From Lytechinus pictus (lineage: Eukaryota): 64,000 nt of DNA. Location of the stretch: the NCBI RefSeq assembly GCF_037042905.1, contig NC_087245.1:4466001-4530000 (forward strand). Direction: 5' to 3'. The notes below the pieces were generated by a model. It was not told the origin of the DNA. It saw only the letters and a program-made list of their open reading frames with translations, and ran no database searches. Positions 1 through 21,881 of this stretch are shown one piece after another (the stretch's first letter is position 1; the number at the start of each line of letters is the position of its first letter). Position numbers and translations under genes: made by a program.

Positions 1-3000
1 TGAATAGGATTATTCATCTCATTATCTCATCTCGAGCACTAGGAGTGACGAACACATAGGCCCTAAGCAAACTATATTTCGTAAAGTTATGAAAATATAT
101 ATATAATATAATATTATATATATACTATTATATAACATAATATATAGTATGATATACAATAATTTTTTCTTCCTCCACCACGTTTCTCTTTCTTTCGCCC
201 TCTCTTTCTCCTTTTCCCGTTTTTTTTTTGGCCAACCGATGTGGGGGGCACGTGCCCCCGTGCCCCCCCCCGTAGTTACGCCACTGTCTGTGTGTTTTAT
301 TGATAGTCTAGATAGACTTTTTATACAAACATATTGTGAGTTTCGGCTGAAAACATCATGTGTATTAGATCTCTATTGGAAAACGAAAAATGTTTCAAAA
401 TGTAATGCATATAATATAGGCCTGTATAGAGTATGAGAAGAGTATTATTCTAGTGTTGCATTTTGGGTGAGGATCCGGAAACTTTTTCTTAGTTATGGCC
501 TAGACATGATGCTGTTCACAGTGGCTGTTATATTTTGGCTGCAATGTTAGGCAATCAAACCGATTATAAGTTGTATCAAAATATCGACACCTATAAAAAT
601 AATAAAGCGGGTGTTAGGGGAGGGTGTTGATGAGGTTAACATGTTAAATGTATTCCTTTAAGAGTTAGCTAGATCTTTCCTCTGTATTTTAACGGCTAAC
701 AACTCTTGCTTACAAGCATTGGTTCAAAACTTGTGGATATCGGTGCCGGTGTGTGTGTTCTTTTTAAGCTAAGTTATAAATAAGCAAATAAAAAATAGCA
801 CAAATATTTTATTTCAGGTTATTTCTATCTTCAATTCGCAAATTCATATCAGTTTTATGATCTCATCTTTCACAAATGCGTATTAGCCGTTACTATTATC
901 TGACCTTGCAGCGTATCATAATTTTGAAAAACAGATATATGCTTTATATTTACAAAAACTATCCCAGCAAAAAAGGTGAGCTATTTGACGATGGAGATTT
1001 TTCAGAGGTGGCATCCATTTGACCACTTAAATTAAAAAGAAAGATGTAAATTTGAGGGGTATATGCCCAGCCTGATCGCAACTCACTTTTTCTTCCATTT
1101 AATTTTTTTTTAATTCTGCTTCCGCCACTGGATCTTTCATTTTGAATTTCTTCCCGAGCTAAATCCAGCTAATGAAAATACGATCCCCCACCATTTTTAA
1201 TATTTTTCCGTAAAAAGATTTTCCTTTACTTTAGAAAGCATTGTCATTACACACTATTTCCCAAAATGATCAATCAAAGCGCACTCCCATTCCAGTAGCA
1301 ATTTCCGTTAAAAAAAATCTGAAAGCAATAAAAGAAGAAAAAAAAAGAAAATGGGCATCAAAATTTTATCAGTAGGCACTCTGTTTCCTCTCTCGCATGC
1401 TGGTCTAAAGAAATAATCAAATGTCTGTATTCATATCAATTTTGAATGAATAATAATAATGAATCAATAATGAATGAACTACCAACTTTACGATGAATTC
1501 TATTAACCCATATTCTTAAGTAATTTTAGAACCCAGTTTGATATACATCTATAATGACAACAGAGAACTTTTTAAAACGACATGAAATCAAAGGCGAATA
1601 TGAAGAAATATAGGAAAGTAATATCACTTGGTATGGTTTCCCCATTCACAATTCATTTGTTAGCACAGTTGAAAAACTCTGGTCTAAATGAAAGAATTAA
1701 ACAAATCGATTGCATCGTTGCTGCTAAATGTATGTTGTTGGATTTTTAAGGCAAATTTTTGAAATGTTCATTTGAACCATTTCCTTTTATATATTTTTTT
1801 GATACGGCGTGCACTTTACAATTGATTTCATAAGATGCAATGAGCATGGTATATGAAAGGTTTGATTTAAGTGCTTTTGTATAAGTTGAGCAACACACAA
1901 TAAGAACCGGAAAAGAAAAAAGGAGGAGGCCCTTTATCCCCGTTTTATACTTTTCTTAATTCTTATGATATTTCATGCGAGTCGTTCTAACGTTGGAATA
2001 TACGTCACAAATACTAACTCTATAATGATATTTCATTCGTGGTATCATTACACGTGCAACTAAAGAATAATCTTTGTATAAAAGCGACTTTCGACCATTA
2101 CAGCATCTGAATTTATAGGCAACACTCATTATACTCTGACTTGATAATAGTTGTTACAAACTTTTACCTTTATATATTTCAGTAATAAGCGACGGGGAGC
2201 AAATGGATATTGATGATGAATGAGATGCTTCTTGTGACAACTATAGTTTGATATTTTAATCATACTTTGGTATTACTTTGAATTCATTGAGCATATATAA
2301 TTCCTCTAATTCCCCCTAAAACTTCCCTTCTTCCATTTCCGTTGTATCAAGAAAAATCCTCGATCTTACCATGCTTATAGCGTGGTATACCATGCTTATA
2401 GAATCTTAAAGCTATTGATTAACCAGTCTCTATAACACCTTTTCGATATTAACCTGTCCGTCTCTCTCTTTCTTGCTCTGTCAATCTATCATGTTTTTTT
2501 TTCTCTCTCTCTCACACACACGCACATCCTCACAGGCACGTACTGATAGATGTTATTCCACTGTATAAACGCTGCTTATAATTTTAAGCACGTTGTTTAA
2601 GCCCGACGCTCTAACAACTATTGTTTAAACTTTTTAAACAACTGCTTAAACTTTTTAAAAAGTTGTTTGAAAAGTTTAAACAATTACAAAAAAGTTTGAA
2701 CAACTTGTTGTTAGAGTGACAGGCTTAAAACAATATACAATTTTTTTACTGTGTATGTTTAAAAGCCAACAACACGAGTTGCCTGTTGTTGTTTTAGCTT
2801 AGTTACGGTGCGTATTATTTTAGTGAATATTTGCGACAGTTTTATTTCTCAATGTAGCTTGGATTACAGGTGCACGCCTTTTTTCGAAGCCAACCATATT
2901 TTCACAATTTCAAGTACATTTTTAACATGTACAAAAAGAAGATTAAAAACTAGAACATGACTAAAAGCCCGACCTACTTTCATTTTGGAGTACTGATTCA

Positions 3001-3156
3001 TAAACACCTCGATCACAATCACACGAAGTCGATACTTTTTTCTTTCTTTTTTATTAATATAAAATCGCGTATATTACATTTCTGTTTCCCTTATTTAGTT
3101 TCCAATACTTCTAATAATGTGCATCTCATTCTGTTCTATACTGATATTAGAATTAG

Positions 3157-3739
3157 GGCTTTGCGACTGCAGTAGTGAGTATATGACGACCATAGTTTCA
3201 CCCGGCTTTCCCGATCATTATCCCTCTCTAACACACAAGGAATGGACTGTGGATATACCTCAATTTTACAAGGTTTGTTACAGGATAATAAAATATATTT
3301 TCTTTCTCTTTCCCCTTATATTCATTTTCATTATCGCTTCATAAATTTAACGAATCTTTACTGCCTGTCATTGTATTTTCCTGTGAATTTGGACGTCAAT
3401 AATTGATATCCAATTGTCTTTATTCTGGGTGATTTCAAGTTTAGCTAGTGTTGAGCTTATGGTATTCTGTGTTAGGTCGATGTTTACACGAGTATAACGC
3501 CAAACATAAAATGAAGATAGCAGTCTGAAAAGCCACTCACTGGGCATTGAGCTGTCAATTTTGTGATCTAGATCATTGTGTAAATTCAGAATAGGTTTTG
3601 GCGCTAGGAAACACAATCTAAATTGTGCTTTAAACACCAACACCGGAAATGAACTCACCCACTGTATTGCACTGGAATACATTCTTAGTTTTTACTTGAA
3701 ACTGATGTTGCTGCTTCAATTACTTTTACTTCTATTATT

Positions 3740-3805
<66 letters not shown>

Positions 3806-3820
3806 GTACTACTACTACTA

Positions 3821-3864
<44 letters not shown>

Positions 3865-3883
3865 GCTACTACTGCTACTACTG

Positions 3884-3936
<53 letters not shown>

Positions 3937-3949
3937 GCTACTACTACTG

Positions 3950-3982
<33 letters not shown>

Positions 3983-4004
3983 GTACTACTACTACTTCTA
4001 CTAG

Positions 4005-4037
<33 letters not shown>

Positions 4038-4076
4038 CACTACTACTACTACTACTACTATTACTACTACTACTAT

Positions 4077-4126
<50 letters not shown>

Positions 4127-4257
4127 GTACTACTACTACTACTACTACTACTAGTAGTAGTAGTAGTAGTGCTACCACCACTACTACTACTACTACTATT
4201 ATTATACTACTACTGCTACTACTACTATTACTTATACTACTACTACTACTACTACTG

Positions 4258-4308
<51 letters not shown>

Positions 4309-4315
4309 TTACTTA

Positions 4316-4353
<38 letters not shown>

Positions 4354-4378
4354 GTACTACTACTACTACTACTACTAG

Positions 4379-4413
<35 letters not shown>

Positions 4414-4553
4414 TTACTTATACTACTACTACTATTATTATTACTTATACTACTACTACTACTTCTACTACTACTACTTCTACTACTACTATTACGAATT
4501 CTACTACTACTATTACTACTATAGTACTAGTAGTAGTTCTACTACTGTTACTT

Positions 4554-4586
<33 letters not shown>

Positions 4587-4587
4587 T

Positions 4588-4640
<53 letters not shown>

Positions 4641-4671
4641 TTACTACTACTACTACTACTACTAGTACTTA

Positions 4672-4716
<45 letters not shown>

Positions 4717-7186
4717 TACTACTTCTACTACTACTACTACTACTACTACTACTATCATGCCACTCTACTCTTAGTTTTACTTCTATTCCCGCTACTACTA
4801 AGTAAAATGTATTTCAGAGATCAAAGTAAGAGTAACATACCCTCTGTGATAGGAGTAAGATTGAAATCGTAAAAATATTAAACTAAATAATTACTGAAAA
4901 GGAAGGTGCCATAAACCACAGAATAAAGTAAAGGCACTAATATGTGATAAAGCATCATTAATATATTGTGTTTATAAAATTTCCTTTCTCTTGAAAGGAA
5001 TATAACCTTATACCCCTTTCACTCCTTTCACGTTTTTATATTTCTGTTTTAGGTCCATATAGTCGTCAATGTTCTCTCTGTTGAACGTGTATGGGACACA
5101 CTCACATTGAAACATAGCCCACTTGCTCTCCCACATGATGGTATTGAATTTCTATTGGTCAGTGCCAATGTGACGTCATTGATTTTACCTTCTGGATCGG
5201 TAGTGATCGAATTCTGTAGCGATGACCGTGTGGAAGATGATGGCTTTGCGTTCGATTTCCGACTTATGCCAATACGCGGTAAGTATAATGCATGAATCAT
5301 ACCAAAAGGAACTACCCGGGGAAGGGGTTCAGGATTGTTTAATGACTACTGTTTAAACGTTTAATTGTCCACCCCAGAAAAACGTTACTTTGAAAAAAAA
5401 GAGAAAAATCAAACTAGCATAACACTGAAAAGTTGATCAAAATCGGATGTAAAAAAGGAAAGTTATGACATTTTAAAGTTTAAAGTTTTTATTTTTCACA
5501 ATACAGTGATATACACAACTCAGTGGCATGCAAATGAGACAGACGATGATGACCATCACTCACTATTTCTTTTGTTTTTTATTGTTTGAGTTATACAATA
5601 TTTTATTTTTTTCTAAACAAATTTGACAATAAGGACCAACTTTACTGAACCATATAGTATTAAACAATACTAATTCCACATTTTCAGGGAGGAATTAATC
5701 GTTGTTTCACTTGACAATGAGGAGAAAATCATAATATTTCATGTTTTATATAATAAAATACAAAATGAAAAGTGAGTGGATGGCGTCATCAGTCTCCTCA
5801 TTTGCATACAGACCAGTATGTGCATAATAACTGTTTGTGAAATTAGGCGAAACTTTAATTAAAATGTCATAACTTTCTTGTCTTGCATCCGATTTTGATG
5901 AAATGTTCAGTGGTATGCCTGTTGGATTTTTCCCTTTTTATTGAAATCAACTTTTTCTCGGCGTGGACTTGGCCTTTAAAATAATGTTAACTACGTCATG
6001 GCTCCTGCATTCAGTTATTTCAGTTTACTGAGATATAATATAATTTGAAATAGTTTCATATTCATGTAAGAAGGCATTTATTTTGATAGTCTTTCGATCT
6101 AAAATGTTAGGATGATGACTTTTGCATAACGTGTGCAAACATAATGTAAATTTCTTAATTTTCTTTGAAACCTCAATGTCTTGCCCTTTTCAGCAATATA
6201 TTTGAAGGTGGGATAGTTATGATTTAAACAGAGGTCGATATCACTGCTTAGACGCGTGCTTTTCAAAATTAAATTTGTAATTTTATAAATCATATTTTTG
6301 TAGATGGCAATAACATGTCATGTGAAAAGATAGCTGAGGACACGGAATTCGCTTGCTCATCTGGAATGCAATTCGTCGACATCATCGCAAGGTGTGATTG
6401 GAAAGTTGACTGTCATGATGTTTCAGACGAAGTCGGCTGTGGGAGTGAGTATAAGTTAATAGAAATGAAGCAAACGTCTGATATATCGATGCAATTTTTC
6501 ATTTGTTTGTATTTCCTGTTTTCATTATGTATGTCTATCCGCACTTTCACACGAAAAAAAAATCGTAATTTGAAAGATGATTCCAGTGAAAAATAAGATT
6601 AATGACGAATATTTAGCACGTGTGAAACCAAACTAGAACATGATTAGAATCACGAACGCTAATCACAGTCACCACAGTCACGATTACAATAGCAATCATC
6701 ATTACAATGATGATTTAAGATTCACGTGTGAAAAGGCCCTATATCATTCTAAGAAGTCAAAATTCATTTCATCTAGTATAAGTGTATTATGGCGCAGACG
6801 TCCAGACGCTTCCTTCCAGTAATATACATACATTTTTAAACTCCAAGGGTAGCAAACAATATCTATTAGAACAATGCTAAAAGTAAGGAAGATTATTGGG
6901 GGATGTGAAAATAGTCAGGGGCGGTGTTCGACCCTTTCGAACGTGGGCGGCAAATCCATCGAAAATTTCAAAGTCTGCATGTAATTTTTGTTTTAATGAT
7001 AAAAAATATATGCTGTCATTGCATCTCGTTCATTATTTAGGAATTCGATTGCATGTTTGTTACATCAGTAATTAATCCGTTTCTATTACAATATCAGATG
7101 AAGATATTTATATATTATATAGATGGTGATCATGGTAATTGCGGTGATGGTGCAGATGTATATTTTAATGTAGTTGGTGGTGGTGG

Positions 7187-16200: not shown

Positions 16201-19200
16201 CTCTTCTGCTCCTCTCGTTTATGTATATTGTCTGCTTAACAATCTTATTCTTTTTATGTTTAAATTTGTCTCCATGATTCGTAATCCATGACGTCATCAC
16301 GGTAACACTAAAGCCTACTGCATGGAAACCTAATGACTTCAGTTAATGCTTCAATGTTTACTGGCTTACGAAACCTACAGAGGATGTAAGTAACATTACA
16401 ACAAACTTTAAATAATAACAGACATAAAACATAATACATACAAAAACGTAAGATGAATGAAAAAAAAAATAGTTCTTCGGATATTCAAAAATTTCGTCAG
16501 ATATAATGAGAATTATATACATGTATATAAAATCGTTTCAATTACAAGTTTTAACATGATGATATGTAGTTGAGGGAAATTTATCAGATCATTTGCTATT
16601 TTGCGCGAGTATTGTTAAAAAAATTATACTTATAATTATTGCGCGAAATGACTTGATATAAATGTCTTCGAATAAATAGCCTAAAATATTTGTTTACATA
16701 GATTACAATGAATAATAATTTCATTCTTTTTTTTTTGTCTCGCATGCATAGCAGAGCGAGACTATAGGCGCCGCTTTTCCGGCGGCGGCGGCGGCGGCGG
16801 CGTCAACATCAAATCTTAACCTAAGGTTAAGTTTTTGAAATGACATCATAACTTAGAAAGTATATGGACCTAGTTCATGAAACTTGGACATAAGGTTAAT
16901 CAAGTATTACTAAACATCCTGCCTGAGTTTCAGGTCACATGACCAAGGTCAAAGGTCATTTAGGGTCAATGAACTTAGACCATGTTGGGAGAATTTTTTT
17001 CAAAATCTTAACCGAAGGTTAAGTTTTTGAAATGACATCATAACTTAGAAAGTATATGGACCTAATCGCTAGAGGGTATTCATTTGTCTCGCAATCTACT
17101 ATGGTCAACAAGGAAATTCGTGATCACTCTCGCAAAAAGTGTTCACTGGCTTTCTAGGAAATTCGTGATCACTCTCGCAAAAAAGTGTTCACTAGCTTAC
17201 AAGTTCACGAGCTTTCGAGTGCCGCTGCAACTCTTTATCAAGTGACGAAAATTAGGTTGGTTGGTTGGTGTTGGAGTTAAGTTGGCGCTCTTCAATCTGG
17301 TAGATTATCTGCGCTAGGTCGTTTCCGAGTTAGTTGCTTAATTCCCGCATCAATGTCCTCGGCGTTAGACTAGTCTGACCTGTCATATAGCGAGGTGCAA
17401 TATAATTATGATTAGTTACCACCATCATTAATTCAGGATGACTTTATAATCTGCATTTCTTCCCAATAATGTTGCTAGATCTGATATTGGCTTGTTTAAT
17501 TATGCAAAGAAGCCTAAAATTAAACAAGCCAATATCAGATCTAGCAACATTATTGGGAAGAAATGCAGATTATAAAGTCATCCTGAATTAATGATGGTGG
17601 TAACTAATCATAATTATATTGCACCTCGCTACATGACAGGTCAGACTAGTCTAACGCCGAGGACATTGATGCGGGAATTAAGCAACTAACTCGGAAACGA
17701 CCTGGCGCAGATAAGTATACCAGATTGAAGAGCGCCAACTTAACTCCAACACCAACCAACCAACCTAATTTTCGTCACTTGATAAAGAGTTGCAGCGGCA
17801 CTCGAAAGCTCGTGAACTTGTAAGCTAGTGAACACTTTTTGCGAGAGTGATCACGAATTTCCTAGAAAGCCAGTGAACACTTTTTGCGAGAGTGATCACG
17901 AATTTCCTTGTTGACCATAGTAGATTGCGAGACAAATGAATACCCTCTAGCGATTATTTCAATCCGCAATAATGAACCTATTTAGTATATAGACCTAGTT
18001 CATGAAACCTAAGTATGAGCTTAATCAAGTATTAGTGAACATCCTGCTCGAGTTTAGGGTCAATGAACTTTGGTCAAGTTGGGGGTATTTGTTGAATTAC
18101 TATCATAACTTTGAAAATTTTTGGATCTAGTTCATGAAACTTGGACATAAGTATTAGTGAACATCCTGCTCGAGTTTCAGGTCACATGACCAAGGTCAAA
18201 GGTCATTTAGGGTCAATGAACTTTGGCCAAGTTGGGGGTATTTGTTGAATTACCATAATAACTTTGAAAATTTATGGATCTAGTTCATGAAACTTGGACA
18301 TTAGGTTAATCAAGTACCACTGAATATCCTGTGCGAGTTTCAGGTCACATGACCATGGTCAATGGTCATTTAAGGTCAATAAACTTTGGCCATGTTGGGG
18401 GTATTTGTTGAATTACCATCCTAACTATGAAAGTTTATGGATCTAGTTCATAAAACTTGGGATACAAGAGTAATCAAGTATCACTGAACATCCCCTGTGA
18501 GTTTCAGGTCACAAAATTAAGGTCAAAGGTCAGTTAAGGTCAATAAACTTAGGCCATGTTGGGGTAATTGTTGAATTGCCATCAAAGTTTATGGATAGAG
18601 TGAATGAAATGTGGACATGGGTGTAGTTGACAAGTCTTAAGTCACCGTTCAAATGTCATTTATGGTCAATGAATGTGGTATTATGTCATTATATGAATGG
18701 TGTTTTTGTGAATGATTATTTTATAGTAGTTTTCAAAGTTAGTACTGCTGCTATATTAAATCGCGTAATGCAGGCGAGACTGCCAGAGGCGTTCCACTTG
18801 TTCTTGATTATAATTTCTAATGTCACTTCATTTAATATATGATTTTTTCCCCACCCCCCTTCTGTCTTCCCCCTCTTTTGTCTTAAGTTATACCCGTGTT
18901 TGTTTGGTTTTACATACTTACGTAGTCTCTATGTGATTATTAATTGTGTAAAGTTATGTTTAATATATAAGTATTAATGATCACAGCAAAAATGATTTCT
19001 ATACTGAATCACAATTGAGGTAGGCATAAAACCTAGAAGGCTCAGTCCTGGTTTTAATCTTGCCCACCTTTTTTTCATTTTTTATGCTGTTTTATTTTTA
19101 AATAATTTTCTTTCTTCTCGTGCTCTAGATGTATTTTGATGTTCATGTTCTATATTCATGCTACTGTTATTGTTTTTATATGTAATTTTTAATGTAAATG

Positions 19201-21881
19201 ATTTGGAATTAAAGATTGAAATTGAAATAAAAACCAATTCCTTTCCATCTCTCACCCCTCTCCAGATACAAATATTTCCTCTTTACTGTGTTTTCTCTTT
19301 AGAAAAAAAAGAAAGAAAATGTTTCACTCTGAATAATTAAATCGTCAAATTTCATTGTAAGCTTACTCCCTCTCTCATATGGCATTTTATTGTTTTAAAC
19401 AGAAATTTTAACAACAATCATTTAAGGTACATTGAACCGGGAGCCTTCCACAATCTATCTACTGTGACTGATTTGTGAGTTTTTACCGATTTATTCAGTC
19501 TGTGTGATTTATTTGCATTTTTTTTTAACACATGTGATCATCAAGATGTTATTGTTATTAATCTTTGTAAACAACAAACGACGATTCTTGATAAAGGGGG
19601 CTAATTTACATAGTTGCATCTAAAAAACTTCTAACAATTTAGTTTTTGAGAGATAACGCAATTACATGCATTTGCTATTAAGTGTATCCTCCATTTCCAT
19701 AGATATTGATAATGTTTGAAAAAAAAAATGCTCTGAAATTTTGTTTTCTTTACTGATGAACTAATATGTAGATTATATACAAAGTATCTCAATTTATAAT
19801 TTTCTTTTATGATACACATTGTCATTGTATCTCTTCATATTTTTTCTGGTGGAAATGGAATAAACATGAATCTGAAATGAATTTTAATCGCGGTGGTACT
19901 ATCCTCAATCACCAGTAACAATAAAGATCACGCGTATACGGTTGGATTGTCCTTCTCTCTAAACGTTTTCTTCTGTTTTTGCCCTTGTTCTTCCTCTATT
20001 ATTTTAGAGTAATTTCATCGCTAAGTTCGGAACCATACCTTCTTTATCCCGGTATATTTGATGGACTGGATTCCTTGACGGCTTTGTAAGTACCTTTCAA
20101 ATATATTTTTTATATTCATGATTACATCAGTGGTTGAGTCGAAGCAATATTGTATTGACCAGGGGCCGCGGAAGCGGGGGGGGGGTGCTGGGGGCTTCAG
20201 CCCCCACTTTTTTTTCCAAAACCGTGTACAAAAACGTAAAAATTACCATATGATTGTGATTTTTTGCAGGATCAGCCCCCCCCCCATTTTAAAAACCGTT
20301 CCGCGGCCCCTGTTGACTTATGCCTGCATGACTGTCCATCTTATTCACATGTATTTAAAGGTGACAATTTTATCAATATAGGGTACATGGAACTTTCATA
20401 TTCGACACTCTCTCTGAATTCTTCAGGCAAAAAGATGCAGCTGTTAAAAACAAAATACTCGTCGGTTCAGTATAAATGTAGAACAACTTGCTTGTCTAGT
20501 GCAGTTGACTCTTGTCACGATTTCACGTGCAGCCTCTAAGAAGTGGTTTCAATATACCAATCATTATCTGATTACTAGTACAATCCGGTTAATGGACTTG
20601 AGAATTTAATGGGCATGATGGGCAAAATATACAAACAGAAGCATATTATGCTCAGATTTCCTACACGAAGTCACTGATGAATAAAGAACTGTCAGTTCGA
20701 TAACTTTTGCTGTTTAATTAAAAAAAGTTTTGAAAGTAATGTATGAATTTTCTTTATCCTTGCTTTATAGATATGTGTATGATCAGCGTTTATGCTGCCT
20801 GTTACCGACTAGCGTTGTTTGCGTTGTCCAAAAGCCTGCTCACCCTCTCTTCACCTGCCGTAGAACCTTTCTTCAGAACACAGCCATCAAGGTTTTCATA
20901 TGGATCCTTGGTTTGAGCGCCCTCTTCGGTAACATCTTTGTCATCACAATGAGAATCAGAAGCCGTTCAGTGACAACGGTTGGTAAGATACAGTCCATGT
21001 TCATCACTAACCTAGCTGTGTCTGACTTCTTTATGGGAATCTACATGGTACTCATAGCAGTCATGGATATCTACATTGGGGAATCCTATTTCTGGGAAGG
21101 TCGTGCTGATGAATGGCGCACCAGTGTAACTTGCCAGATTGCAGGATTCCTATCTGTCCTTAGCAGCGAAGCATCGGTCTTTCTCCTGACCTTGATAACA
21201 GCTGATCGTTTCATTTCCATAGTATTTCCCTTCAGCCACCACCGCCTTAGTACCACATCTGCCCGTGTTGCTCTTATTGTCATCTGGATAGTCGCAATTT
21301 CTCTCAGTCTTATCGGTGTCCTGCTGAACAATGTTATACCCGAAGCATATGGTCTCAGTGATGTCTGCGTTGGTCTCCCATTCATCAGGAAATCAACGGA
21401 CATCTCTACTGTGATTGACCAACGTTCATCTGCCCAGTACAACACTGTGATCTACAATATTGCATCAGGATCCACAGTCTCGACATGGCAGTTCTCAATT
21501 TTCCTGTTCCTTGGAGTAAACCTCTTAAGCTTCATCACTATCCTCTTCTCTTATATCATTATTTTCATCAAGATTCGTCTGGATCAGGCCGAAGTCGGTC
21601 GCAGGGCAGAAGCTTCTAACGAAATCAAGATGGCCTTTAAGATGTTCTTGATCGTTGGCACCGACTTTTGCTGTTGGATGCCCATTATCATTCTTGGTAT
21701 CCTCGTCCAGACGGTCGGGGTCGATGTTACACCAGATATCTACGCCTGGTTGGTGGTGTTTGTTTTACCAATCAATTCATCACTCAATCCCTATCTATAC
21801 ACCATAATTCACATGTCATCGAAGAGATCTGCAAATGAGAAGAGCAAGCAGACGGTTATTAGCATGGTTACCCGTGACTAG
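3157..21881 (+). CDS. GRL101/relaxin-receptor-like LRR-containing GPCR (CUB + 2 LDLa + LRRs + 7TM); 5' exon(s) uncertain
   Basis: Phase-consistent exons: 3157(or 3151)-3272 and 5053-5278 (CUB: IVSPGFPDHYP...EWTV...FCSDDRVEDDGF); 6304-6444 and 9159-9266 (LDLa: CDWKVDCHDVSDEVGC; CDGWSDCPLGEDEQNC); 9813-9981 (Cys-rich LRR N-cap); seven phase-2 LRR exons of 72-78 bp (10737-10808, 11281-11352, 11682-11753, 12872-12946, 16314-16385, 19403-19474, 20008-20085); terminal exon 20771-21881 with hinge DQRLCC and 7TM motifs NLAVSD, DRF, TDFCCWMP, LPINSSLNPYLY. About 795 codons in total. Confidence 0.92.
3741..4800. repeat. (TAC)n microsatellite, ~1 kb
   Basis: Direct reading. Confidence 0.98.
5357..5975. 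mobile_element. Kolobok-like MITE, diverged copy
   Basis: Colinear with 50597-51187; ends gtggacttggcct|ttaa. Confidence 0.75.
7175..7502. repeat. (GAT/GGT)n low-complexity tract with a 71-bp unit x3
   Basis: gataatggtaatggtgggatagtggtg recurs at 7242, 7313 and 7384. Confidence 0.9.
7735..8060. mobile_element. Possible CACTA/EnSpm-like MITE
   Basis: ta|cactg ... cagtg|ta termini, with repeated ctgtaaaat/ttacag motifs. Confidence 0.45.
8105..9095. mobile_element. Tc1/mariner-like MITE (~990 bp)
   Basis: TA|cagtgcgtatc..aaagtttacactt ... aagtgtaaacttt..gatacgcactg|TA. Confidence 0.85.
9403..9600. repeat. (GT)n/(GA)n compound microsatellite
   Basis: Direct reading. Confidence 0.9.
13472..14432. 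mobile_element. GC-rich foldback (long inverted repeat) element
   Basis: ~430-bp imperfect inverted arms (~13520-13910 vs ~13960-14372) with poly-G/poly-C tracts; outer taaattgca/tgcaattta. Confidence 0.75.
14860..15360 (+). mobile_element. 3' end of a CR1/L2-group LINE (ORF2 C-terminus + 3' UTR)
   Basis: HSHYTRQSNQLHLP...SF..CFPKLWNNLPSDIKSSSTLSRFKRLIRK is typical of L2/CR1-group ORF2 ends; tail aataaataaattgaattgaa. Confidence 0.8.
17205..17245 (-). ncRNA. Mirror copy of the minimal hammerhead ribozyme
   Basis: Reverse complement of 17775-17815, located in the left arm of the palindrome. Confidence 0.65.
17775..17815 (+). ncRNA. Minimal type-I hammerhead ribozyme (U3-A8 variant)
   Basis: TCAC (stem I) - TTGATAA (core) - A - GAGTtGC agcg GCACTC (stem II) - GAAA - GCT (palindromic AGCT helix III) - C (cleavage site) - GTGA (stem I'). 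Confidence 0.65.
20160..20312. mobile_element. Small MITE
   Basis: TIR caggggccgcggaa/ttccgcggcccctg, flanked by a ttgac repeat. Confidence 0.7.
20771..21881 (+). CDS. Terminal hinge + 7TM exon of the LRR-GPCR
   Basis: Lies within ORF 20730-21881. Acceptor tttatag ends at 20770. Seven hydrophobic segments with rhodopsin-class/LGR motifs; TAG at 21879-21881. Confidence 0.95.

Follow-up and report, generated by a model that had tools for sequence, protein, structure and literature searches.

The 64,000-nucleotide stretch of the Lytechinus pictus genome considered here (contig NC_087245.1, positions 4,466,001 to 4,530,000, referred to below as the window) contains two minimal hammerhead ribozyme (min-HHR) motifs, which lie on opposite strands at 17205-17245 and 17775-17815. 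We put a probability of about 0.9 on the interpretation that both are hammerhead modules from the pseudo-long terminal repeats (pLTRs) of a young Penelope-like element (PLE) of high copy number, two 5'-truncated copies of which lie head to head within a single insertion. On this interpretation, one known mobile element accounts for the motif, for its odd core and for its mirror-image pairing, and thus neither a new ribozyme class nor a regulatory cassette near the neighbouring G protein-coupled receptor (GPCR) gene needs to be invoked; the practical value of the observation lies in annotation.

The motif and its element family

The + strand of 17775-17815 reads TCAC-TTGATAA-A-GAGTtGC(AGCG)GCACTC-GAAA-GCT-C-GTGA, and its reverse complement occupies 17205-17245, exactly as a preliminary description of the window had reported. 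Helix I (TCAC/GTGA, 4 bp) encloses the core UUGAUAA, one unpaired A, helix II (GAGU(u)GC/GCACUC, 6 bp with one bulge and the loop AGCG), the letters GAAA, the palindrome AGCU and C17. The core letters match the hammerhead set (C3 U4 G5 A6 N7 G8 A9, G12 A13 A14, A15.1-U16.1, H17) except for U3 and A8, and the preliminary description was right that this double substitution preserves the 3-8 pair. Rescue of hammerheads by swapped 3-8 pairs has reportedly been seen in experiments. The unpaired A follows A9, a G10.1-C11.1 pair closes helix II, and the palindrome is A15.1-G-C-U16.1. The predicted cut follows C17811 on the + strand and the C at 17209 on the - strand. Our own min-HHR descriptor called for either core (C3-G8 or U3-A8), at least 5 bp in helix II, GAAA, complementarity between 15.2 and 16.2, U16.1, H17, and at least 4 bp in helix I; it found exactly these two matches on both strands of the window, and only one match across 300 windows simulated with a first-order Markov model.

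The segment 17766-17965 was covered at (rounded) 100% identity by 36 of the 42 rows scored from among 883 first-look candidates in the window's own 811-Mb assembly. When the 20-mer GTCACNTGATNAAGAGTTGC is searched without fixing positions 3 and 8, it has 438 matches in the genome and none in the reversed control, and in each of the 100 matches listed these two positions are T and A, respectively. By this count of exact matches, the family comprises at least 438 near-identical copies. The copies have the end ...GAACCTATTTAG (...CCTATTTAG) in common, in most cases with TA after it, and their flanks diverge from there on; several of them (L025, L026 and L030) are shortened on the opposite side and lie between target-site duplications whose length varies, a combination that is the signature of a retroelement 3' end.

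Upstream open reading frames (ORFs) of the element match the reverse transcriptase (RT) family RVT_1 with E-values of 2.7e-8 to 7.3e-8, which clear the curated cut-off, and a C-terminal block, GVVYNIPCQGCDGSYIGET..R..EH ('GVVY..CxxC..YIGET..R..EH'), can be read by eye as a GIY-YIG nuclease with a CxxC insertion. The nearest clusters in the ESM Atlas (score 0.97) consist of animal proteins of 730-830 amino acids with RT, HTH_animal and DUF8422 domains and, for some, GIY-YIG; one of these clusters was named automatically with GIY-YIG and another has GIY-YIG on 27% of its members. No CX2-5CxxC linker is visible by eye before the GIY-YIG-like block, which would fit an assignment to Penelope/Poseidon rather than to Neptune/Nematis.

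The complete form of the element is represented by a locus (L046) with the canonical order pLTR-ORF-pLTR, in which two 1014-bp direct repeats are 100% identical, the unit is 2867 bp long and the ORF, from 2336 to 4804, is open over 823 amino acids. The hammerheads of this locus, at 2139-2179 and 5006-5046, lie one inside each of the pLTRs on either side of the RT ORF. This ORF starts in GCAATAATGAACC, and its ATG is placed within the last 14 nt of the element (GCAATA-ATG-AACCTATTTAG), with the predicted cut site 160 nt upstream of that ATG and ~200 nt downstream of the stop codon of the previous unit. Together, the genomic copies, the RT ORF and the pLTRs of this locus establish the PLE context that the preliminary description had proposed for a type I hammerhead with a palindromic AGCU.

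The insertion in the window

In the window, the two motifs belong to a head-to-head insertion of 921 bp (17065-17985) that is bracketed by a target-site duplication of 10-12 bp. Its parts, and the neighbouring GPCR frame, are as follows.

17053-17064, no strand: left target-site duplication, TATATGGACCTA, within the host ~163-nt satellite; 11/12 identical to 17986-17997
17065-17254, - strand: left arm, an inverted 5'-truncated PLE fragment (part of the pLTR / 5' untranslated region, 5'UTR); mirror of 17766-17954
17205-17245, - strand: minimal hammerhead motif with U3-A8 core, from sequence and descriptor scan; predicted cut after the C at 17209
17255-17765, no strand: inner palindrome, the 3' end of LINE-like 'element B'; sense copy 17498-17765 (+), inverted copy 17255-17501
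17766-17985, + strand: right arm, a 5'-truncated PLE fragment that runs to the element 3' end (...GAACCTATTTAG), from copy comparison
17775-17815, + strand: minimal hammerhead motif with U3-A8 core, from sequence and descriptor scan; C17 at 17811
17817-17906, + strand: two 45-nt tandem repeats of the PLE 5'UTR, from repeat analysis; mirrored at 17111-17203
17986-17997, no strand: right target-site duplication, TATATAGACCTA; the satellite unit resumes in register across the insertion
20718-21881, + strand: rhodopsin-family GPCR open frame, one exon, 387 codons; 7tm_1 E=2e-26, profile positions 1-260 of 260

The right arm includes a 31-nt 'tail' (17955-17985) and the ATG of the PLE ORF (17972-17974), and the left arm stops at an internal '...CTCTAGCGAT' site without these final 31 nt. 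Other copies, such as L048, also end at ...CTCTAGCGAT without the tail. The arms of the resulting hairpin (17065-17501 and 17518-17954, 437 nt) differ at 3 of 436 aligned positions and by two 1-nt indels, and they enclose a loop of 16 nt (17502-17517), in good agreement with the hairpin of about 440 bp that had been described. In a transcript of either strand, one copy of the motif would be sense and the other antisense, also as first proposed. Folding of the whole insertion yields -826.3 kcal/mol (z=-78.7), against -9.2 kcal/mol for the hammerhead helices I and II, and the expectation that the hairpin would sequester the motif is therefore borne out by the folding model. Since the inserted fragment contains no ORF, each transcript would have a single sense copy and the 437-nt arms would lock the motif into double-stranded RNA (dsRNA), the motif at this locus is almost certainly inert.

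The proposal that the locus represents a self-silenced ribozyme cassette did not survive comparison with the rest of the family. The first 100 family sites listed include 19 head-to-head (-,+) pairs, with 5 kb as the maximum spacing, and one direct pair, at a distance of 2867 bp, but no tail-to-tail (+,-) pair; 38 of the 100 sites lie in head-to-head pairs. Such pairing routinely arises as a by-product of PLE insertion. A large version of the architecture in the window occurs at L031:4250-7894, where two long PLE ORF copies of 730 and 540 codons, each matching RVT_1, are arranged head to head and overlap at their 5' ends.

The inner 511 bp of the insertion (17255-17765) are not PLE sequence. 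Their source is the 3' end of element B, an unrelated retroelement of LINE-like type that forms a second young family. At least 40 other genomic copies of element B exist at 89-98% identity, none of them palindromic; they are truncated at varying points on the 5' side and end alike on the 3' side, at a CCAA-rich tail (L036-L045), and an RNase_H domain is found in the upstream ORF of one copy (L045). The element B sequence of the window lacks 172 nt that are present in other copies, and both arms share this gap as well as the junction between element B and the PLE. A 23-mer spanning that junction was absent, at up to 2 mismatches, from the assembly outside the two arms of the window. One locus (L047) was considered as a source of the chimera of LINE-B and PLE, as it matched 12 nt further inward, yet it proved to be an ordinary truncated copy with a target-site duplication of its own.

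The palindrome was probably made by one event. In the sequence of steps that we infer, the PLE cDNA would have switched template onto the 3' end of an element B RNA and then either copied back on itself or been joined by a second cDNA whose priming took place on the opposite target strand. The end of the inverted arm coincides with an internal start site of reverse transcription, and the 31-nt tail is present at one end only.

The surroundings of the insertion are repetitive. The ~163-nt satellite-like repeat forms an array at 16796-18500 of the window, with copies that are 61-100% alike, and a (GGC)n run at ~16780-16803 precedes it. The GPCR ORF begins ~2.7 kb downstream of the insertion, and this single frame is the sole GPCR evidence that bears on the suggestion that the + copy lies in the sense strand of a GPCR pre-mRNA.

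Core variants, cleavage and alternative explanations

Genome-wide matches to a pattern consisting of each core type followed by N{10,24} and CGAAASSTH were counted and compared with a reversed control:

C3-G8 core: 1613 matches, 130 in the reversed control
U3-A8 core: 1288 matches, 572 in the reversed control
C3-A8 core: 285 matches, 553 in the reversed control
U3-G8 core: 267 matches, 189 in the reversed control

Enrichment is thus seen for the cores that keep the 3-8 pair and, slightly, for the U-G wobble, but not for the C-A mismatch. Part of the U3-A8 excess arises because an abundant unrelated repeat with TTGATAAATTATATACCAATCGAAAGCTT (for example at G000:C1:3723698) matches the pattern and inflates the count, although it has no G10.1 and no credible helix II. 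Among the first 100 canonical matches listed, 97 carry the palindrome AGCU or ACGU, even though the pattern also allowed GG and CC. Judged from their sequences, ~1,600 min-HHRs of the same build with canonical cores reside in this genome, and they fall into visible families with covarying helices. The family of the window itself includes one C3-A8 copy (L066) and one U3-G8 copy (L067), and a subfamily (L052) has U17 and a fifth helix-I pair, for a 5-bp helix I. The U3-G8 pattern is also matched by a tandem array at G000:C6:11258031-11283912, whose unit carries TTGAGGAATATTTTGGAAAACGTAGTTCGAAACGTT at a spacing of ~765-2,800 bp; this array is a candidate for a retrozyme-like hammerhead tandem, or else a chance match. 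About 200 nt upstream of a canonical-core min-HHR, L053:105-240 forms a long perfect hairpin (with a sub-threshold MIR6288-like Rfam match, E=1e-11) that is probably another head-to-head retroelement junction.

The covariation among genomic copies that the preliminary description had called for was scored on 17 loci picked by hand from the canonical listing, together with the window, which gave 19 distinct segments; L066-L068, which are mutated copies of the window's family, were left out. With the segments anchored on the core boxes, and positions 1-4 of helix I and of helix II scored, 129 of 152 helix cells pair, as compared with 42-58 of 152 when the partner is slid by one or two positions and with 85.7 +/- 4.6 under column shuffling; none of 2000 shuffles reached 129. 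Each position shows 2-5 pair types, except for the invariant G10.1-C11.1 (19/19), whose C was required by the pattern. Helix I positions 1-4 pair in 17, 18, 12 and 10 of the 19 segments.

Expression was followed in three raw-read RNA-seq runs that carry the same species label, mapped to one PLE unit (L046:2040-4900). Read depth over the motif was 137, 174 and 162 (summed, three runs), with no letter differences listed within it. Depth over the tail region of the element exceeded that over the 3' half of the ORF by a factor of 5-10, and hardly any reads covered the 5' half. Loose read ends just beyond the element end had a low-agreement consensus, which suggests that most of the RNA reads probably come from truncated PLE copies within other transcripts. 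The 45-nt repeat (L046:2190-2236, corresponding to 17817-17906 of the window) varies in number in the reads, with joints that skip 45 nt or go back 45 nt, each in two or three runs. Other reads have a consistent foreign sequence just upstream of the hammerhead, at L046:2128 and 2138 (agreement 0.75-0.97, 12-36 reads per run); these may represent expressed loci with copies truncated before the motif, or other elements that share the module of hammerhead and tail.

If the hammerhead cuts, cleavage after C17 would need two sense copies that pair through AGCU to form helix III, or assistance to the fold from the element's own protein, and by analogy with published PLE hammerheads it would serve to process PLE RNA of more than unit length. 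The AGCU/AGCU duplex between two copies is worth -2.5 kcal/mol. In two-molecule folding the minimum-energy dimer was a strand-swapped form, but a nested-structure model cannot score a hammerhead dimer, and the result is uninformative either way. The fold of the single strand 17765-17825 (-10 kcal/mol, z=+0.71) is not better than that of shuffled sequences, which is expected for so small a motif and is neutral.

A number of observations weigh against our interpretation, or against an active ribozyme within it. Helix III is impossible within one molecule, where AGCU would leave a 2-nt loop, and helix I has just 4 bp. The loci for the covariation test were picked with helix II visible, and that part of the result is biased accordingly; helix I was not visible at picking. 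The GIY-YIG-like call combines motifs read by eye with a weak Pfam match (E=0.14 and 12.9 bits against a cut-off of 22.6 bits, residues 688-755). In the three RNA-seq runs, no position of the PLE unit, the cut site included, shows a pile-up of read ends. If cleaved RNA were the usual template for insertion, many copies would be expected to start at G1.1 and to have random bases in front of it. Yet G1.1 follows C or T in 492 of 496 copies, and A or G in just 4; the latter are two A17 variants and two head-to-head junctions, none of which is a clean start at the cut site. A literature search on U3-A8/C3U/G8A kinetics found no published kinetics for a U3-A8 PLE hammerhead, the sole mention of U3-A8 in that search being by Cervera & De la Pena 2014 (PMC4209133). 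The same article describes min-HHRs as cutting poorly in vitro, solely as dimers or with helix III extended, and Naiad PLEs, which have no hammerheads, are described as proliferating well, with the suggestion by the authors that hammerheads may parasitise PLEs (PMC8557442).

Rfam, too, is silent: no hammerhead was found at the gathering score or at E<=10 in the window, the locus or full PLE copies, where the only matches were sub-threshold ones to miRNA precursors, such as any long hairpin yields. This silence says little, because all 6 control loci, which hold min-HHRs with canonical cores from this genome, were likewise unmatched; Rfam hammerhead models do not see forms without helix III. 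The covariance-model search recommended in the preliminary description thus came back empty for the motif and for its canonical relatives alike. The accompanying claim that a standard search would miss the motif holds for Rfam, but a descriptor with the U3-A8 core had been applied and published by 2014 (PMC4209133).

Several alternatives deserve to be weighed against these results. It is plausible, if less likely, that the motif is a hammerhead by descent that no longer cuts or never cut efficiently, and that its fold is kept for recognition by the RT or its ribonucleoprotein, for a promoter or 5'UTR role, or simply rides along with the element. The want of read ends at the cut site, at a depth of 137-174, and of copies that begin there cleanly would fit such a history, as would the low activity in vitro ascribed to min-HHRs in PMC4209133, the report that hammerhead mutants of the Anolis carolinensis Poseidon element (PAc) left insertion in vitro unaffected and that no RNA-seq ends fell at its cut site (PMC11167929), and the success of the hammerhead-free Naiad elements, with hammerheads as possible parasites of PLEs (PMC8557442). 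On the other hand, the entire catalytic core has been retained, with a change at 3 and 8 that preserves the pair instead of breaking it; paired cores are enriched genome-wide and mismatched ones are not; and H17 has been kept, as C or U in 492 of 496 copies, with the two A17 variants remaining within H. Moreover, standard poly(A)/cDNA RNA-seq detects 5'-OH and 2',3'-cyclic-phosphate ends poorly. Alternatively, the hairpin itself might be the functional part, with ~437 bp of dsRNA feeding RNA interference against the PLE family or regulating the neighbouring GPCR gene, and with the ribozyme as an incidental passenger. The near-perfect hairpin and its folding energy speak for this, as do the many family sites in head-to-head pairs (38 of the first 100 listed) and strand-switching RNA joints in the PLE tail (2090/2167, 2149/2295 and 2152/2295, 1-7 reads per run), which imply that such junctions occur in RNA libraries. 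These reads could nevertheless stem from DNA carry-over or from other loci, A>G/T>C changes do not outnumber C>T/G>A changes among RNA reads of at least 95% identity, which hence give no sign of dsRNA editing, and the arrangement is fully explained as a by-product of insertion of the kind described in PMC8557442. We consider a functional hairpin quite improbable.

Assembly problems are reportedly caused by such PLE structures (Craig et al. 2021, PMC8557442), and a fold-back chimeric long read could in principle have produced the palindrome, all the more as the 23-mer across the junction of element B and PLE is unique to the two arms. An artefact of this sort would not, however, be expected to be bracketed by an 11/12 target-site duplication with the satellite resuming in register, nor to have arms that differ by 3 substitutions and 2 indels with a 31-nt tail on one arm alone, and 18 further head-to-head pairs of the same family occur among the first 100 sites listed; we regard it as very improbable. 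Least credible is the idea that an AT-rich repeat happens by chance to hold hammerhead-like boxes, a reading that is already close to refuted. It could draw on the silence of Rfam, the high background of the U3-A8 pattern (572 control matches) and the TTGATAAATTATATACCAATCGAAAGCTT repeat, which fits the pattern without a credible helix II, but the full descriptor with helices I and II matches only once per 300 simulated windows, the motif sits at the place in the pLTR that is published for PLE hammerheads (PMC4209133, PMC8557442), and the ~1,600 similarly built motifs with canonical cores and covarying helices reside in the same genome.

Beyond these alternatives one may speculate that the most active PLE of this genome carries a U3-A8 hammerhead and has reached hundreds of identical copies with no trace of cleaved RNA, be it in RNA-seq reads or in copies that begin at the cut site; if the lack of such traces is genuine, the fold would be an element for recognition or dimerisation and not a cutter of the template, and head-to-head insertion would seed the element's own hairpin RNA loci. 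We hold this to be unlikely. Were it true, the head-to-head habit would be a built-in source of silencing RNAs against the PLE 5'UTR and hammerhead region.

To return to the PLE interpretation, its wider interest lies in the occurrence, in one genome, of a young, homogeneous and apparently intact U3-A8 PLE family beside many canonical-core families. Because of this coexistence, the family offers a convenient natural system for asking whether a U3-A8 core cuts, and whether a PLE hammerhead cuts in vivo.

Comparison with known systems

The closest published counterparts are the metazoan PLE min-HHRs, which, as described in PMC4209133, reside in pLTRs, have no helix III (for which action as dimers has been proposed), and feature palindromic 15.2-16.2 positions, one nucleotide left unpaired between A9 and 10.1, G10.1 paired with C11.1, and 6-8 bp in helix II as against 4-5 bp in helix I. 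Such min-HHRs occur in pairs on opposite strands, 100-700 bp apart, along with many dispersed single motifs from truncated copies, and a U3-A8 covariation of the core is described there for the Cercyon PLEs of Schistosoma mansoni, with ~1,300 matches. The motif in the window shares with this published set the pLTR location, every structural feature listed, the U3-A8 core, the opposite-strand pairing and the scatter of single motifs left by truncated copies. It differs from Cercyon in host and in PLE family, and also in being very homogeneous (438 exact 20-mers), whereas the schistosome sets are described as highly variable (PMC4209133). The kind of motif, its U3-A8 core and its opposite-strand pairing have accordingly all been in print since 2014.

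Individual PLEs offer narrower comparisons. A bulged base in helix II is common to the motif described here and to a variant from Drosophila virilis Penelope, an element whose hammerhead identity has been ascribed to ongoing invasion; the D. virilis motif, as presented in PMC4209133, differs by having 2 bp in helix I, a small palindrome inserted into helix III, a canonical C3-G8 pair and an intron end at helix I. PAc, on the account given in PMC11167929, resembles the Lytechinus element in that a PLE hammerhead lies near the start of the ORF and that no RNA-seq reads were reported to end at the cut site. The ORF of PAc begins inside helix II, while in the Lytechinus element 160 nt separate the cut site from the ATG downstream, and cleavage of PAc has been shown, while that of the L. 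pictus motif is predicted. According to the same source, cleavage of PAc is assisted by protein and is not required for insertion in vitro, single mutants of the 3-8 pair are dead and the double swap partly rescues them, and the tail is explained by internal initiation of reverse transcription.

The architecture of the insertion has its own precedents. Craig et al. 2021 (PMC8557442) describe complex PLE insertions with partial tandems, heavy 5' truncation, an adjacent inverted 5'-truncated copy and a tail of 30-40 bp, often at one end. The insertion in the window has in common with these the inverted 5'-truncated partner, a one-sided tail of 31 nt, heavy 5' truncation and a hammerhead inside the pLTR; it departs from them, as they are described, in that both arms are short dead fragments and in that the centre is a 511-bp LINE-like 3' end that was duplicated alongside. 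Animal non-LTR retrozymes, as portrayed in PMC7229834 and in bioRxiv 10.64898/2026.07.22.740005, likewise have type-I hammerheads with a weak palindromic helix III and a link to PLE pLTRs. Retrozymes form head-to-tail tandem arrays that yield small circular RNAs, in contrast to the inverted pair found here, and since that pair has one sense motif per strand, no unit bounded by two cut sites exists at this locus.

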